Below, one piece after another: positions 15,656-36,891 of a stretch of DNA of 56,700 bases. The stretch is taken from the NCBI RefSeq assembly GCF_003334255.1, contig NZ_QOWU01000034.1, one strand, 5' to 3'. The first letter of the stretch is position 1. Each line of letters opens with the position of its first letter. The DNA is from Escherichia coli. Lineage in GTDB: Bacteria; Pseudomonadota; Gammaproteobacteria; Enterobacterales; Enterobacteriaceae. The position numbers were made by a program, and so were the translations under genes. The notes under the pieces were generated by a model that was not told the origin of the DNA, searched no databases, and saw only the letters and a program-made list of their open reading frames with translations.

Positions 15656-16546
15656 TTAGTGGCTTTGCGCGATAAGATCGTCTGGTGAAAGTCGGGTCAC
15701 CATCATAACTAACTCTCTGTCTAAACCTCTATCCAGCATCTCCTGAGCAATACGCAGGGCTTCTTCGTGTTTGCCCTGCATTGCGCCTTCTTCACGTAAT
15801 CTGTCAGCAATGGTCATCAGTTTCTCCTTTTCTTGTGGTGCGCGTTCCGCTATCTCACCAATAAATGCACGAAAACGCTGGGCATCCCCTGTTTGTAATA
15901 CGTAATTAAACAGGGCTTTTAGCTGTCTGTCATTAGTGTTCCCTGTAACTAGCAGCGAAACAATTTGGTCGACTAATCCCAACAGATCGCGCTGACGAAT
16001 ATGTTTCTGAATTAACTCCAACAGCGCCATTTTGCGGTGTTGCATAATCTCGTCATCCGGCACCACGGTAATATCCACCAACGGAAAAGCCGATGAATAT
16101 ATTTTGCGGGCTATAGCAGGCTCGGCAAATTCATCAAGCCAGCAGAGTGAATAAGGATAAGGACTTCTGCAACCATGATAAAACAGCATCGGGAGCACCA
16201 ATGGAAGCTCTTTATAGCCCGCATCAAGATGGTTTTGCATTGCCGCAATGGAATAACGCATCATGCGAAAAGCCATTAATTCTTCCGGCTTACTTTGGTG
16301 CTCTATCACTACATAAATATAACCCACTCCCTCCTGCGTTTTCACAGACCACAAGAGGTCGGAATAATATTGCCGCAGGTCTTCATCAATAAAACTGTTT
16401 GGTTCCAGTTTAAGCGTCGTTAAATCACACAGTTTGCGCAGCGGCGCGGGAAGATGAATATCAATAAAATCCCGCGCGGTGTCTGGATGGCGTAAAAAAG
16501 ATTTAAATACCGCATCATGCGGCGTGGAAGTTGTCGATATTGTCAT
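15656..16546 (-). CDS. rpnB: Recombination-promoting nuclease RpnB (PD-(D/E)XK transposase-like, Rpn/YhgA family)
   Basis: 296-aa ORF recognised as YfcI/RpnB; stand-alone gene flanked by its own intergenic regions. Confidence 0.85.
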
Positions 16547-16704
16547 GGCGTTCCGTCACCCCTCAAATTTAAGATGACGCGACAATAACCACGATTAACA
16601 CCCAATGCAGCAGGCAGTTTTTATCTTTGGACAGCGAATTCAGAAGTATTTTTAGCGGACTGTAACTTTTACATTTCAGCGGAAGCTGACTCGCAAATTC
16701 CCCA

Positions 16705-16736
16705 TGAAAATACTCCGGCAGCGTTAGCCACCGGAG
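16705..16736 (-). terminator. Rho-independent terminator of the hisJQMP operon
   Basis: On the minus strand ctccggtggctaacgctgccggag is followed by tatttt, directly after the hisP stop. Confidence 0.75.
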
Positions 16737-16742
16737 AGGAAA

Positions 16743-17516
16743 TTATTTCAGCGATCCCTTAAGGAACCGTTGCAGACGAGGGCTTTGCGGGTTGCCAAAT
16801 AACTGCTCCGGCGCGCCCTCTTCTTCTATTTTCCCCTGATGGAGGAAAATGACATGAGTAGAAACATGGCGAGCAAAGCCCATTTCGTGAGTCACTACCA
16901 CCATGGTTTTCCCCTCTTCTGCCAGTTGCTGCATAATACGCAACACTTCGCCTACCAGTTCAGGATCGAGCGCCGAGGTAGGTTCATCAAACAGTAAAAC
17001 TTCCGGTTCCATCGCCAGCGCCCGCGCGATAGAAACACGCTGTTGCTGACCGCCGGAAAGATGCACCGGATATTTCCCCTGCGCACGTTCGTCTATCCCG
17101 ACTTTTGCCAGATACTTCACCGCCCGCTCGCGCGCTTCCTGCTTGCTCAGGCCCAACACCTGAATCGGCGCTTCCATGACGTTTTCCAGCACCGTCATAT
17201 GGCTCCAGAGATTGAAGTGCTGGAATACCATCGTCAGGCGTGTGCGCAGTAAGCGCAGTTGATTTTTATCGGCGACTTTGAGTTGACCGTCTTTGTCGCG
17301 CACCAGATTGATCGTCTGGCCATTGACCACGATCGACCCTTCACTCGGTTTTTCGAGGAAGTTAATGCAGCGCAGAAAGGTACTTTTCCCCGATCCCGAC
17401 GATCCGATGATGCTTATTACATCTCCGGCATTCGCTTGCAGTGATACCCCTTTCAGCACTTCATGTTCGCCGTAGCGTTTGTGCAAATCGATAACGTTTA
17501 ATTTATTCTCGGACAT
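16743..17516 (-). CDS. hisP: Histidine/basic amino acid ABC transporter ATP-binding protein
   Basis: 257-aa ORF with Walker [13 protein letters not shown] signature LSGGQQQR and Walker [12 protein letters not shown]. Confidence 0.95.
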
Positions 17517-17523
17517 CGTATTC

Positions 17524-18240
17524 TCAGTGCGTTGAAGAAGGTTTCACATGCTGCAACCAGCGTTTTTCCGCTCTGCGAAAGAGGCTGATCAGGACATAAG
17601 AGATGATTAAATAGAGCACCGCGGCAATGCCGAAGGCGGTAAAAGGTTGATACGTGGCGGCGTTAATATCGCGGGCTATTTTCAGCAGATCCGGCACCGT
17701 GGCAGTAAATGCCAACGCAGTAGAGTGCAGCATCAGGATCACTTCGTTGCTGTATGCCGGTAACGCAATACGCAGCGCAGAAGGCAAAATAATGCAGCGA
17801 TACATTTTAAAAGTCGAGAAGCCATAGGCTCTGGCGGCTTCAATTTCCCCATGCGGAACCGAACGGATTGCCCCAGCAAAAATCTCGGTAGTGTAAGCGC
17901 AGGTGTTAAGCGTCAGCGCCAGCACGGTACAGTTCAGGCCACTGCGGAAGAAAGCGTTAAGGAATTCGGTTCCCTTAACAATCTCAAGCGTGTACATGCC
18001 GGAATAGAACACCAGCAACTGAACATACAGCGGCGTACCGCGAAAAATATAGGTAAATAACCAGATTGGAAACTGGATGTATTTATTACTGGAGACACGA
18101 CCAATCGCCAGAAACAGCGCCAGGACTCCGCCTATCACTACCGACAAAATAAGCAGCCACAGAGTGATCGCCACACCAGTAAAGCGATAACCGTCGGTCC
18201 ACAGCAGCGGTTTCCAGTATTCATGTAAGATTTCGATCAC
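17524..18240 (-). CDS. hisM: Histidine ABC transporter permease
   Basis: 238-aa polar amino acid ABC permease; overlaps hisQ stop by 4 nt. Confidence 0.93.
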
Positions 18241-18923
18241 AGGTCAGCCCTCTTCACACCCACGGAGTAGCGGCGCTCAAGGAACAGCAGCACACCATTG
18301 GAAACAGTGGTGAAAACCAGGTAAATCACGCCACAGACGATGGCGAAATAGAACGGTTCCCAGGTACTTTTGCCTGCCAGTTGGGTGGCTTTGACCACAT
18401 CTTCCAGGCCGAGTAACGAAACCAGTGCGGTAGATTTGAGGATCACCTGCCAGTTGTTGCCAATGCCTGGCAGGGCGTAACGCATCATCGACGGAAACAT
18501 GATCCGCCGAAACACTTGCCCACGAGTAAAACCGAACGCCGTCGCCGCCTCTATATGTCCTTTCGGCACTGCCATAAAAGCACCACGGAACGTTTCGGTA
18601 AAATAAGCACCGTAGATAAAACCGAGAGTGATAATACCAGCGACCATCGGATCGATATCAATCTGCCCGACGCCCATCGCCTCCGTCACCGTGTTTAGCG
18701 CAATCTGCAAACCGTAGAAAATCAGCAGCATCAACACTAAGTCCGGCACGCCACGAATCAGCGTGGTGTACCCTTCGAAAATCAGCCCCGAAAGCCGATT
18801 TTGCGAGAGCTTACCGCCAGCGCCAATTAAACCGATGATTACAGCGAGCACTACAGAGCTGATAGCCAGCTCCAGCGTGACGAGCGCACCCTGTAAAATA
18901 ACACCTGAAAACCCATACAACAT
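18237..18923 (-). CDS. hisQ: Histidine ABC transporter permease
   Basis: 228-aa ABC permease; part of hisJQMP. Confidence 0.93.
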   Translation of the reverse strand: MLYGFSGVILQGALVTLELAISSVVLAVIIGLIGAGGKLSQNRLSGLIFEGYTTLIRGVPDLVLMLLIFYGLQIALNTVTEAMGVGQIDIDPMVAGIITLGFIYGAYFTETFRGAFMAVPKGHIEAATAFGFTRGQVFRRIMFPSMMRYALPGIGNNWQVILKSTALVSLLGLEDVVKATQLAGKSTWEPFYFAIVCGVIYLVFTTVSNGVLLFLERRYSVGVKRADL

Positions 18924-18964
18924 GCTGCCTGTCCTGTCGTGTGTGGTGAATTACCGCCTCTTGT

Positions 18965-18988
18965 CTCCCTCCGGTTACCCGAAGGGAG
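18965..18988 (-). promoter_or_regulatory. Intercistronic hisJ-hisQ stem-loop (REP-like mRNA-stabilising hairpin)
   Basis: ctccctccgg-ttac-ccgaagggag near-perfect inverted repeat between the hisJ stop and hisQ start; the homologous Salmonella interval is the classic intercistronic palindrome. Confidence 0.6.
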
Positions 18989-19012
18989 CGGGCTTTCTTT
19001 CACCGATGGCGA

Positions 19013-19795
19013 TTAGCCACCATAAACATCAAAATCGAAGTACTTTTTCGCTAATTTCTCGTAAGTACCGTCAGCGCGCATTTCGGCAAAGGCTTTGTTC
19101 AGTGCTTCGCGCAGTTCGTTATCTTCTTTACGCAGGCCCATGCCGGTCCCTACGCCAAACAGTTTTTCATCTTTAACAGACGGGCCACCGAATTTGTAAT
19201 CTTTACCGACAGGTTGTTTGAGGAAACCTTCGCTGGCAGCGACCTCATCCTGGAACGCGGCATCAATACGTCCGGCAGTCAGGTCAGAATAAATGTTGTC
19301 CTGCCCCTGATACGAGACGATTTCAATGCCTTTTGGTGCCCAATGTTCATTACCGAACGTCTCCTGGGTGGTGCCCTGCAATACGCCTACCCGTTTGCCT
19401 TTCAGCGACTCGACTGTCGGCTGAATGTCAGAATTTTTCGCCACCACCAAACGAGAATCGGCAGCGTACAGTTTGTCGGTGAAGGCTATTTCTTGCTGAC
19501 GTTTTTCCGTAATGGAAAGCGATGACATGATGGCGTCAATCTTCTTCGCTTTTAAGGACGGGATTAACGCATCCAGCGGATTTTCGACAAACGTACATTG
19601 CGTATTGATGCGTTTGCATAATTCCTTTGCCAGATCGATATCGAAGCCAACCAGTTCGCCTTGTGAATTTTTTGATTCAAATGGCGCATAGGTCGGGTCG
19701 GTACCGATGCGGATGTTTTGCGGAATCGCAGCAAACGCCGCAGTTGCGCTGGAGAAGGCCAGAACCAGAGAGAGCGATAGCACCAGTTTTTTCAT
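19013..19795 (-). CDS. hisJ: Histidine-binding periplasmic protein
   Basis: 260-aa ORF with signal peptide and periplasmic binding-protein fold; paralogous to argT immediately upstream. Confidence 0.95.
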
Positions 19796-20015
19796 AATGT
19801 CCTCAACTGACAGTCTTTTTATAGGGAATATTTACAGGTTTGTTACACTTATCGTGCCATAAAATTGACCATCAAGGCAAAATATCCCGCCCCGTTAGAC
19901 GTATTATTTTTCATTAAAAATGCTTAAGTATGCATTTCAATGCACCACGATAGTGCAACAAACCTGGCGTGCACCATGATGATCATTCCATCAGGTACAG
20001 CTTCCCAGCGACGTA

Positions 20016-20798
20016 TCAGTCACCGTAGACATTAAAGTCGAAATACTTTTTCGCCATCTTGTCGTAGGTGCCGTCCTGACGCAGCTCGCCAAGCGCCTTA
20101 TTGAAGGCAGCCGTCAGTTCAGCATCATCTTTACGTAGCCCTACACCGGTGCCATCACCGAAGTATTTTTTGTCTTTTACTGATGAGCCAGCAAAGGCGA
20201 AATCTTTACCAGCAGGTTGCTTGAGGAATCCTTCGCTGGCAGCAACTTCATCTTGTAACGCAGCATCCAGACGTCCTGCAGCCAGATCGGAATAGACCAA
20301 ATCCTGGTTGGCATAGGCCACCACATCCACGCCTTTACTACGCCAGGTCTCGTTAGCGTAAGCTTCCTGGGTTGATCCCTGCAGCACACCAACATGTTTA
20401 CCTTTCAGTGAATCCAGCGTTGGCTGAATCGGTGAACCTTTGGCCGCAATCAAACGAGAATCTGCGGCGTACAGCTTGTCGGAGAAGGCAATCTCCTGCT
20501 GACGTTTATCGGTAATGGAAAGCGACGAAATAATAGCGTCGATTTTTTTCGCTTTCAGTGAGGGGATCAGCGCGTCAAAGTCACTGGCAACCCAGGTACA
20601 TTTCACCTGCATCCGTTTGCACATCTCGTTACCGAGATCGATATCAAAGCCAACAAAATCACCTTTAGCATCTTTCGATGAGAACGGTGCGTAGGTGGTA
20701 TCGGTTCCGATACGTACCGTCTCCGGTAGCGCCGCATAGCTGGAAGCCGCTGTGGAGAGACCGACTAACAAAGACAGAGCGAGAATCGACTTCTTCAT
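20016..20798 (-). CDS. argT: Lysine/arginine/ornithine-binding periplasmic protein
   Basis: 260-aa ORF, signal peptide, closely similar to HisJ; recognised as ArgT. Confidence 0.95.
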
Positions 20799-20866
20799 AC
20801 ATAACCCTCAAGTGAAAATGGCTTTTTTATGTTGTGTATTGTGTTGTGTGTTTGCAGGCTCTTTCA

Positions 20867-20882
20867 TGCAGGTCTTATGCCA
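20867..20882 (-). promoter_or_regulatory. Sigma54 (-24/-12) promoter for argT
   Basis: Minus-strand TGGCATAAGACCTGCA: GG and GC separated by exactly 10 nt, matching TGGCAC-N5-TTGCA; about 70 nt upstream of the argT ATG. Confidence 0.7.
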
Positions 20883-21029
20883 TCTTGACGACAACAGTAA
20901 CATTCAACGTTAAATATGTTAATAAGACGTTGCATTATTGTCCTGAAGTTGAAGATAGCAGGTATAGCGGTTGAATCGCAGCGTTTCGATTGAATGGCAG
21001 AAACAAAATGTCGAGGATTTGATCGCGGT

Positions 21030-21056
21030 TGCAAAATTGCCCTGAAACAGGGCAAC
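21030..21056 (-). terminator. Rho-independent terminator after ubiX
   Basis: Minus-strand ttgccctgtttcagggcaa hairpin followed by ttttgc, directly after the ubiX stop. Confidence 0.8.
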
Positions 21057-21063
21057 AGCGGAG

Positions 21064-21633
21064 TTATGCGCCCTGCCAGCGGGCAAAGAGATCTTCAGGA
21101 AGGGTTATCGCAAACTGGTCAAGAACACGATTAACCGTCTGATTTATCACATCATCAAGGGATTGCGGGCGATGATAAAACGCCGGAACGGGAGGCATAA
21201 TCACCGCACCGATTTCTGCCGCCTGAGTCATTAAACGCAGATGGCCTAAGTGCAATGGTGTTTCACGCACGCAGAGCACCAACGGGCGACGCTCTTTCAG
21301 CACCACATCTGCCGCACGGGTCAGTAAGCCATCAGTATAGCTATGGACAATGCCGGAAAGGGTTTTGATTGAACAGGGTAAAATCACCATCCCCAGCGTC
21401 TGGAAAGAACCGGAAGAGATGCTGGCGGCAATATCGCGCGCATCGTGCGTGACATCGGCTAATGCCTGCACTTCGCGCAGAGAAAAATCCGTTTCGAGGG
21501 ATAAGGTCTGGCGCGCTGCCTGGCTCATCACCAGATGCGTTTCGATATCTGTGACATCGCGCAGAACCTGTAATAAGCGCACGCCATAAATCGCGCCGCT
21601 GGCACCGCTGATGCCTACAATGAGTCGTTTCAT
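21064..21633 (-). CDS. ubiX: Flavin prenyltransferase UbiX
   Basis: 189-aa flavoprotein ORF with N-terminal GISGASG motif. Confidence 0.93.
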   Translation of the reverse strand: MKRLIVGISGASGAIYGVRLLQVLRDVTDIETHLVMSQAARQTLSLETDFSLREVQALADVTHDARDIAASISSGSFQTLGMVILPCSIKTLSGIVHSYTDGLLTRAADVVLKERRPLVLCVRETPLHLGHLRLMTQAAEIGAVIMPPVPAFYHRPQSLDDVINQTVNRVLDQFAITLPEDLFARWQGA

Positions 21634-21727
21634 AAATAGTTGCCCTGTCAGACTTGCAGGCAGACTTTGCAGGATTTCGGCGGGAGTTGCAAGTCAGGGT
21701 GCCAGACCGGCACCCTCAGCGAAGGCA

Positions 21728-23245
21728 TCATCCTTCGTTATGCATTTCGAGATTTTCCACTTCGTTCTGACGTTGCACTGCTTTGGCGTCATCATTACGT
21801 AACGTATCGAGGAAATCGAGGTAGCCCTGATCAACATCTTTGGTGACGTAGACGCCGTTGAACACCGAGCATTCAAACTGCTGGATATCCGGATTTTCAG
21901 CGCGAACGGCGTCGATCAGATCGTTCAGATCCTGGAAAATCAACCCGTCAGCACCGATGATCTGGCGAATTTCATCAACTTCGCGACCGTGAGCGATCAG
22001 TTCCGTGGCGCTCGGCATATCAATACCATAAACGTTCGGGAAGCGAATTTCCGGTGCCGCAGAAGCGAGGTACACTTTCTTCGCTCCGGCTTCGCGTGCC
22101 ATCTCGATAATCTGCTCAGAAGTGGTGCCACGGACGATGGAGTCGTCGACCAGCAGGACGTTTTTATCGCGGAACTCGGCGCGGTTGGCATTCAGTTTAC
22201 GGCGCACGGACTTACGACGCAGCTGCTGGCCCGGCATGATAAAGGTGCGGCCAACATAGCGGTTTTTAACGAAGCCCTGGCGGTACGGTTTGCCCAGAAT
22301 ACGAGCAATTTCCAGCGCGATATCACACGAGGTTTCTGGGATCGGGATCACCACGTCGATATCCAGATCTTCCCATTCGCGGGCAATTTTCTCGCCCAGT
22401 TTCGTGCCCATATTCACACGCGCGCTGTAAACGGAAATTTTGTCGATAAACGAGTCCGGGCGGGCAAAGTATACATACTCAAACAGGCACGGATTGCTGA
22501 CCGGATTGTCAGCACATTGACGGGTAAACAACTGCCCTTCTTCAGTGATGTAAATCGCTTCGCCCGGCGCGACGTCACGCAGGAAATCAAAGCCCAGCGT
22601 ATCGAGCGCTACGCTTTCGGAAGCGACCATATATTCTGTACGGTTCTCGTCAATATCACGTTTTCCCAGTACCAGCGGACGAATCCCGTTTGGATCGCGG
22701 AAAGCAACCATACCGTGGCCGATAATCATCGCCACACAGGCATACGCGCCGCGGATTAAGCGGTTTGTGGCAGCAATGGCAGCGAAAATATTGTCGGCTT
22801 CCAGCGGGTAGTGGCGGAAGTTGTCCAGCTCGCTGGCGAAGATATTAAGCAGAATTTCCGAGTCGGAAGTGGTGTTGATGTGGCGGCGTTTTTCTTCAAA
22901 CAGTTTTTTACGCAACTCGTGAGCGTTGGTCAGATTGCCGTTGTGGGCAAGCGTAATGCCATACGGGGAGTTAACGTAAAACGGCTGCGCTTCAGAGGCG
23001 CTGGAGCTGCCAGCCGTGGGGTAACGCACATGACCAATGCCCATATTGCCCTGCAAACGCTGCATATGGCGAGCTTCAAATACATCGCTCACCAGCCCGT
23101 TCGCTTTACGCAAACGGAAGCAGTTATTGGCATCTATGGTGATGATGCCGGCGGCATCCTGACCGCGATGCTGAAGCACCGTTAAGGCATCATAAATCGA
23201 CTGGTTAACCGGCATAACACCGGCGATACCGACAATACCGCACAT
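21728..23245 (-). CDS. purF: Amidophosphoribosyltransferase
   Basis: 505-aa ORF with N-terminal catalytic Cys (MCGIVGI) and PRPP-binding motif [13 protein letters not shown]. Confidence 0.96.
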
Positions 23246-23904: not shown

Positions 23905-24020
23905 TTTTATGCCTTTGCGGCATCGGGCAATGCGTGTCGGATGCGGCGTAAACGCCTTATCCGACCTACGGTTCTACCCCTGCGTAGGCCTGATAAGACG
24001 CGCCAGCGTCGCATCAGGCA
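23905..24020. repeat. BIME/REP cluster
   Basis: Tandem inverted REP units (gccggatgcggcgtaaacgccttatccgacctac ... gtaggcctgataagacgcgccagcgtcgcatcaggc) between dedD and cvpA. Confidence 0.8.

Positions 24021-36794: not shown

Positions 36795-36891
<97 letters not shown>

Follow-up and report, generated by a model that had tools for sequence, protein, structure and literature searches.

ABC importers require their binding protein in large surplus over the membrane transporter encoded in the same operon, an excess reported to be 10- to 200-fold for type I importers, and a hairpin between the cistrons is one textbook-style way of providing for this. The histidine transport operon is one such case, its Salmonella form having been a classic since the 1980s. 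REP elements were reportedly first described, by Higgins in 1982, at the hisJ-hisQ site of Salmonella typhimurium, and deletion of the REPs is said to lower the expression of hisJ, an observation attributed to the work of Stern, Prossnitz and Ames in 1988 on post-transcriptional control of the histidine transport operon.

In E. coli BW25113 RNA half-lives and RNA 3' ends have been determined on a genome-wide scale (Dar & Sorek 2018, PLoS Genet, PMC5927463), with histidine named among the ABC transporters whose binding-protein gene is stabilised. Within table S6 of that study hisJ|hisQ is one of 26 '3' protective structures', a class of sites that taken as a whole has no U tract and shows no significant Rho-dependent termination in bicyclomycin data. 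Whilst 17 of these 26 structures are inside the downstream coding sequence, the hisJ-hisQ hairpin is truly intercistronic. The hairpin, its protective role, the 3' end and the difference in decay are therefore already known (Dar & Sorek 2018) and are no new biology. In E. coli, hisQ has also been verified as a target of the small RNA GcvB, which represses it via its R1 seed region, as found with a hisJ-hisQ intra-operon reporter (Miyakoshi 2021, PMC9299463).

The DNA analysed here is a stretch of 56,700 nt from E. coli, referred to as the window throughout, in which the genes and the functional RNA at this locus are on the minus strand, a point absent from the preliminary description of the sequence. 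All 5426 of the 5426 complete E. coli genomes contain a match to a 351-nt query spanning the hairpin site (95-100% identity), which falls on genes annotated as hisJ and hisQ. The gene order on the minus strand is purF, ubiX, argT, hisJ, hisQ, hisM, hisP and rpnB. hisJ (19013-19795, minus strand), an ORF that is 100% identical to the annotated E. coli hisJ, encodes the periplasmic histidine-binding protein and is the stabilised upstream cistron, with hisQ (18237-18923, minus strand), recognised by its ORF and annotation, encoding a permease and being, from the published half-life ratio, the less stable downstream cistron. The intercistronic spacer between them is 89 nt long (18924-19012, minus strand), is bounded by the hisJ stop and the hisQ start and is found in all 5426 genomes. 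Read 5' to 3' it is laid out as hisJ stop codon, hairpin, mapped 3' end, GcvB and ribosome-binding region and hisQ start. A plus-strand ORF at 18763-19176 was rejected as a mechanical antisense ORF over the two real genes.

The core hairpin, CUCCCUUCGG-GUAA-CCGGAGGGAG in mRNA sense, is at 18965-18988 on the minus strand, where it is identified by a repeat finder, by folding and by table S6 of Dar & Sorek. Its 5' arm runs from 18988 to 18979, the loop from 18978 to 18975 and the 3' arm from 18974 to 18965, with the stem beginning 24 nt past the hisJ stop codon. It is the sole inverted repeat that the repeat finder reported in the spacer, having 10-nt arms, a 4-nt gap and 90% complementarity as DNA; the single DNA mismatch becomes a G.U wobble in the minus-strand RNA, and the stem pairs at 10 of 10 positions around the GUAA loop. 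The preliminary description had claimed a near-perfect 10-bp stem in this 89-nt spacer, which both the repeat finder and folding confirm, and it had proposed folding of the spacer RNA as a check, which gives a stable structure of -33.2 kcal/mol (z = -3.3) for the whole 89 nt. The 24-nt hairpin alone folds at -18.6 kcal/mol (z = -4.2), with none of 200 shuffles equally stable, and the 45 nt up to the published 3' end, comprising the 5' flank, the hairpin and a 6-nt tail, fold at -19.9 kcal/mol (z = -3.4, again none of 200 shuffles). When the whole 56.7-kb window is shuffled by mononucleotides, the two strands together yield about 4.3 uninterrupted stems of 10 bp or longer, so that the probability of one arising by chance in any particular 89-nt spacer, on one particular strand, is a few per thousand.

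In the window as a whole, uninterrupted stems of at least 10 bp with G.U allowed show a strong strand bias, with 23 on the minus strand and 3 on the plus strand, compared with about 4 on both strands together in shuffles. Minus-strand stems with U-rich tails at 53690-53662, 26010-25984 and 16736-16713 resemble terminators of minus-strand genes, and at 55721-55749 both strands give a perfect palindromic stem of 13 bp, TAAAGTCACCTGC...GCAGGTGACTTTA.

The conserved form of the stem at 18965-18988, which occurs in about 40 species, consists of an anti-Shine-Dalgarno-like CCUCC paired to a Shine-Dalgarno-like GGAGG. A small ORF following the GGAGG of the 3' arm was rejected, with direct reading finding no start codon downstream. 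As no start codon follows the motif and the stems of other genera do without it, the motif is probably incidental.

The published 3' end from Term-seq is at BW25113 position 2419431, directly past ...CUCCCUUCGGGUAACCGGAGGGAGACAAGA, with an upstream sequence given as GGCTAATCGCCATCGGTGAAAGAAAGCCCGCTCCCTTCGGGTAACCGGAGGGAGACAAGA and a fold of ...............((((((((((....))))))))))...... at -19.9 kcal/mol (table S6, PMC5927463). Sequence, structure and energy are all reproduced here, and placing the table S6 sequence on the window puts the RNA 3' end at 18959 on the minus strand, 6 nt past the stem with the tail ACAAGA. Processing by RNase III was rejected as the main idea, as this end is 6 nt outside the stem and not within a long duplex. 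The half-life ratio of hisJ to hisQ is 3.72, which is listed without a standard deviation, and the ratio of steady-state mRNA is 5.83 +/- 2.81 (table S3, PMC5927463); in the independent data of Moffitt 2016, given in the same table, the half-life ratio is just 1.39. In Salmonella the differential abundance is 4.77 +/- 0.47 and the 3' end is past the distal REP of a pair (table S5, PMC5927463).

These data bear directly on what the preliminary description had proposed, namely that a 3' hairpin would protect the upstream hisJ mRNA and that a step in mRNA abundance should be looked for between hisJ and hisQ. Protection of hisJ is supported by the published 3' end, by the half-life ratio of 3.72 and by conservation across 80 species, and the steady-state ratio of 5.83 +/- 2.81 is the abundance step, with the mRNA not uniform across the two genes. 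That the hairpin 'helps explain' the excess of binding protein was also fair wording, the approximately 6-fold mRNA effect being part of the 10- to 200-fold excess. The mRNA difference alone cannot explain an excess of that size; as it is smaller than the protein excess, weak translation of hisQ and repression by GcvB must supply the rest.

The hairpin very probably serves as a barrier to 3'-to-5' exonucleases where the hisJ cistron ends within the polycistronic hisJQMP mRNA. An endonuclease, most likely RNase E, would first cleave the hisQMP part, which is poorly translated, at a putative site, and exonucleases, for which PNPase and RNase II are candidates, would trim back from the cut until they stall a few nt 3' of the 10-bp G+C-rich stem. 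The product would be a translatable hisJ mRNA that ends at 18959 and outlives the hisQMP part, with a half-life about 4-fold longer and about 6-fold more hisJ than hisQ mRNA as the expected outcome. Pairing of GcvB to the CA-rich hisQ leader lowers the translation of hisQ further, and probably feeds the same route of decay. We infer that in E. coli this outcome depends causally on the hairpin.

The core stem is not the only structure predicted in the spacer. In the full-length mRNA the minimum-energy fold of the spacer extends the core stem by an interrupted outer helix, in which GCCC at 18990-18993 forms the 5' strand and pairs with the 3' strand G.GGC at 18956-18960 (both minus strand). The covariance-model alignment described below recovers the same pairing as its helix 1, with 99% of cells paired and 2 pairs changed on both sides. 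An outermost helix of GGUGAA (18999-19004) with UUCACC (18945-18950, minus strand) is weakly predicted for Escherichia in the minimum-energy fold, and in the comparison of 80 species it is not conserved outside Escherichia. As the outer helix has the mapped 3' end at 18959 within its 3' strand, the coordinates suggest that processed hisJ RNA would retain the core hairpin only. On that reading this covarying outer helix is present only in the unprocessed mRNA, beside the GcvB site.

Downstream of the hairpin the hisQ leader is CA-rich and unstructured (UUCACCACACACGACAGGACAGGCAGC, 18924-18950, minus strand), includes the ribosome-binding site and ends at the hisQ AUG. It is conserved across genera and, from the duplex profile, is the predicted site of pairing to GcvB R1. 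The GcvB query sequence is present at 100% between gcvA and ygdI. In a sliding duplex profile of 18 nt the best R1 pairing is at 18946-18921 with -16 to -17.5 kcal/mol, compared with a mean of -7 kcal/mol for all windows across 18864-19072, and this best stretch spans the ribosome-binding site and the AUG as well as the CA tract. The sliding profile was substituted for two other predictions: unrestricted duplex prediction of GcvB against 149 nt of mRNA returned a meaningless interaction of 140 nt, and prediction with R1 only did not outperform shuffles (44 of 500).

The E. coli hairpin does not belong to the REP elements. No match to the REP consensus (e.g. CTTATCMGGCCTAC, 1 mismatch allowed) was found within 18924-19012, and the covariance models of Rfam 15 gave no match at 16000-22000 on either strand with E-values up to 10. 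It is also single-copy, with queries of a 60-nt extended palindrome and of the 34-nt core each matching a median of 1 place per genome in the 5426 E. coli genomes, and it matches once within the 56.7-kb window. The REP pattern matches the window only at 23956-23997 and 36816-36852, which are two inverted pairs of REP cores (CTTATCCGACCTAC / CTTATCAGGCCTAC); these are genuine REP/BIME elements and act as a positive control for the pattern.

A comparative set of 80 hisQ loci was assembled, with one genome per species, and the hisJ-hisQ spacer was extracted from each. A stable hairpin is found in the spacer of 80 of the 80 enterobacterial species, with energies between -13 and -51 kcal/mol, and the stems comprise at least seven sequences unrelated to one another. 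The CCCUCC/GGAGGG stem is found in Escherichia, Enterobacter, Lelliottia, Kosakonia, Leclercia, Phytobacter, Silvania and four Citrobacter species, a CCCAUCG(CGCG) stem in Kluyvera, Klebsiella and Raoultella, and other stems in Atlantibacter, Pluralibacter, Pseudocitrobacter, Superficieibacter and one Enterobacter species. An inverted REP pair is found in Salmonella and most Citrobacter (loci L007-L009, L011-L013, L016-L023, L025 and L026), with a single REP in one C. amalonaticus (L011). The genus Citrobacter shows both states, as four other species (L010, L014, L015 and L024) have a simple CUCCCUCC/GGGAGGGAG hairpin. On direct reading the REP-bearing spacers share the flanks of E. coli, AAAGCCC upstream and AAAAGAGGC...CACCACACACGACAGGACAGGC downstream, and the REPs thus sit just where E. 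coli has its hairpin. The spacer of Citrobacter freundii M-21 is unusually long at 289 nt, with an Atlantibacter-like hairpin and about 200 nt of extra sequence. Folding of whole spacers gave z-scores with a median of -2.5, of which 75 of 77 were negative, the signal being weak for several very G+C-rich spacers.

Covariation was assessed with a covariance model that was built on, and used to align, 40 distinct spacers of the CCCUCC/GGAGGG type. An alignment of the 40 spacers with MAFFT and RNAalifold placed the 5' arm of Escherichia one column off and under-called the stem, and the covariance-model alignment was used instead. A first search with the model took in REP spacers through their flanks only (24-33 bits), and these were left out of the pair counts. 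In the alignment 94.2% of cells are standard pairs, compared with 43-62% when the 3' partners are slid by 1-3 columns. Changes on both sides are seen in 6 of the 13 pairs and none of 500 shuffles attains the covariation score of the real alignment, numbers that are supportive and not a strict probability, as kinship among the species and the fitting of the alignment to the structure make these statistics overstate independence.

On a shorter evolutionary scale, the changes seen in Escherichia and in sampled E. coli variants are in the loop (GUAA to GUAU or GCUA) and the flank (GCCCG to GUCCG). In E. albertii the loop and the loop-closing pair are altered and a 9-bp stem is kept, and among the sampled Escherichia and E. 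coli variants no change was found that breaks the rest of the stem. That these variants alter loop or flank and not stem argues for a role that would depend on the structure and not on the sequence of the loop. A natural disruption is seen in 1 of the 5426 E. coli genomes, strain TUM14697 (NZ_CP128888.1, 911-2560), where the IS4-like element ISEc13 has inserted at the hairpin apex (window 18975-18984), duplicating TCGGGTAACC and parting the arms of the hairpin by about 1.5 kb.

The CCCUCC/GGAGGG hairpin is probably the ancestral type, as it is found in roughly ten genera (among them Escherichia, Enterobacter, Kosakonia, Lelliottia and some Citrobacter). It is possible, if rather doubtful, that the spacer is an evolutionary slot in which any hairpin that is stable enough will serve, the CCCUCC/GGAGGG hairpin having been replaced by REP pairs in Salmonella and most Citrobacter, or by unrelated hairpins in Klebsiella, Raoultella, Kluyvera, Pluralibacter, Atlantibacter and others, and in which the outer helix might couple the decay of hisQMP triggered by GcvB to the release of stable hisJ mRNA. 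Were this to be true, the locus would offer a clean natural case of a mobile REP fixed as the substitute for an existing stabiliser of mRNA. That one site has a unique hairpin, unrelated hairpins or REPs depending on the genus supports the functional equivalence of REPs and ordinary hairpins as stabilisers of mRNA, a comparative angle that is mildly new.

With its high G+C, its stability and an RNA 3' end closely following it, the hairpin superficially resembles a terminator, and the structure could be read as a partial terminator or attenuator, intrinsic or Rho-assisted, such that fewer polymerases reach hisQMP and the 18959 end is a product of termination or of trimming after it. The fall of 5.8-fold in steady-state mRNA across the hairpin exceeds the 3.7-fold ratio of half-lives, as such a reading would have it. 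Like intrinsic terminators the element is a G+C-rich stem-loop of similar size and stability, and the terminator-like hairpin just past hisP (16713-16736, minus strand), where the hisJQMP transcript probably ends, likewise combines a 10-bp stem with a 4-nt loop. However, the hisP hairpin is followed by TATTTTCA, whereas in E. coli the hisJ-hisQ stem is followed by ACAAGAGG, with A-rich tails in the other 79 species and no U run after the spacer hairpin in any of the 80. A terminator scan of the minus strand did not call the hairpin at 18965-18988, yet the same scan does detect the operon terminator past hisP at 16736-16713. Furthermore, Dar & Sorek filtered out any operon that had a terminator motif inside it or was known to undergo Rho termination, they saw no bicyclomycin-sensitive signal at this class of sites, and their data class the hisJ-hisQ site as a non-terminator, one which polymerase reads through to hisQMP. 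Termination is thus a quite unlikely account of the drop in mRNA. It is likewise unlikely that the structure mainly sets the translation of hisQ, with an extended helix that organises the leader, insulates initiation at hisQ from ribosomes terminating at hisJ or tunes the access of GcvB and Hfq, and with the protection of hisJ as a side effect. The outer helix is predicted and covaries, its 3' strand adjoins the verified GcvB target region, and the GGAGG of the 3' arm is paired to CCUCC in about 40 species, all of which would suit control of translation. Yet the best GcvB windows and the ribosome-binding site (18946-18921) fall almost completely outside the predicted helices, sharing just two terminal bases with the outermost helix, which is weakly supported and is not conserved beyond Escherichia, and the GGAGG has no start codon after it. 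Stems without GGAGG in Klebsiella, Raoultella, Kluyvera, Pluralibacter and others, together with the REPs of Salmonella, indicate that neither the sequence nor a precise geometry is required.

The idea that the palindrome has no function at all, and either arose as an inverted repeat by chance or was left behind by a mobile repeat (a REP, for example, or a miniature transposable element), is hardly credible. REP pairs do fill the same slot in Salmonella and Citrobacter, and ISEc13 has landed in the hairpin loop of one E. coli strain, so mobile DNA has a history at this site; but the hairpin folds better than shuffles, is single-copy in the 5426 E. coli genomes, with no REP consensus in its spacer, and has a structure that is conserved and covarying across enterobacterial species with an RNA 3' end mapped to it. 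The absence of a U tract, the published Rho data, the mapped 3' end and a structure that is kept while its stem sequence turns over all speak against termination, control of translation and a relic, and protection of hisJ mRNA from exonucleases is the preferred role for the hairpin.

It is apparent that the closest match amongst described systems is with the 3' protective hairpins of Dar & Sorek, as the E. coli hisJ-hisQ hairpin is the same object as the one they list, with identical sequence, fold and energy. Like the GcvB target sites of other amino-acid ABC transporter mRNAs, the hisJ-hisQ spacer bears a CA-rich site targeted by GcvB R1, which represses hisQ, although this site is a separate unstructured element 15-40 nt downstream of the hairpin and the hairpin itself is not the pairing site. 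Compared with the hisJ-hisQ REPs of Salmonella typhimurium the hairpin has the same position in the operon and the same AAAGCCC ... AAAAGAGGC flanks. Unlike REPs, it is a unique single-copy sequence without the REP consensus and is not mobile, and it is one 24-nt stem-loop whereas the REPs are paired, inverted and about 35 nt each. Both with these REPs and with malE-malF of E. coli it shares the stabilisation of the upstream mRNA and an RNA 3' end past the palindrome, and the best-supported model for hisJ and hisQ is differential decay of the malE-malF type.
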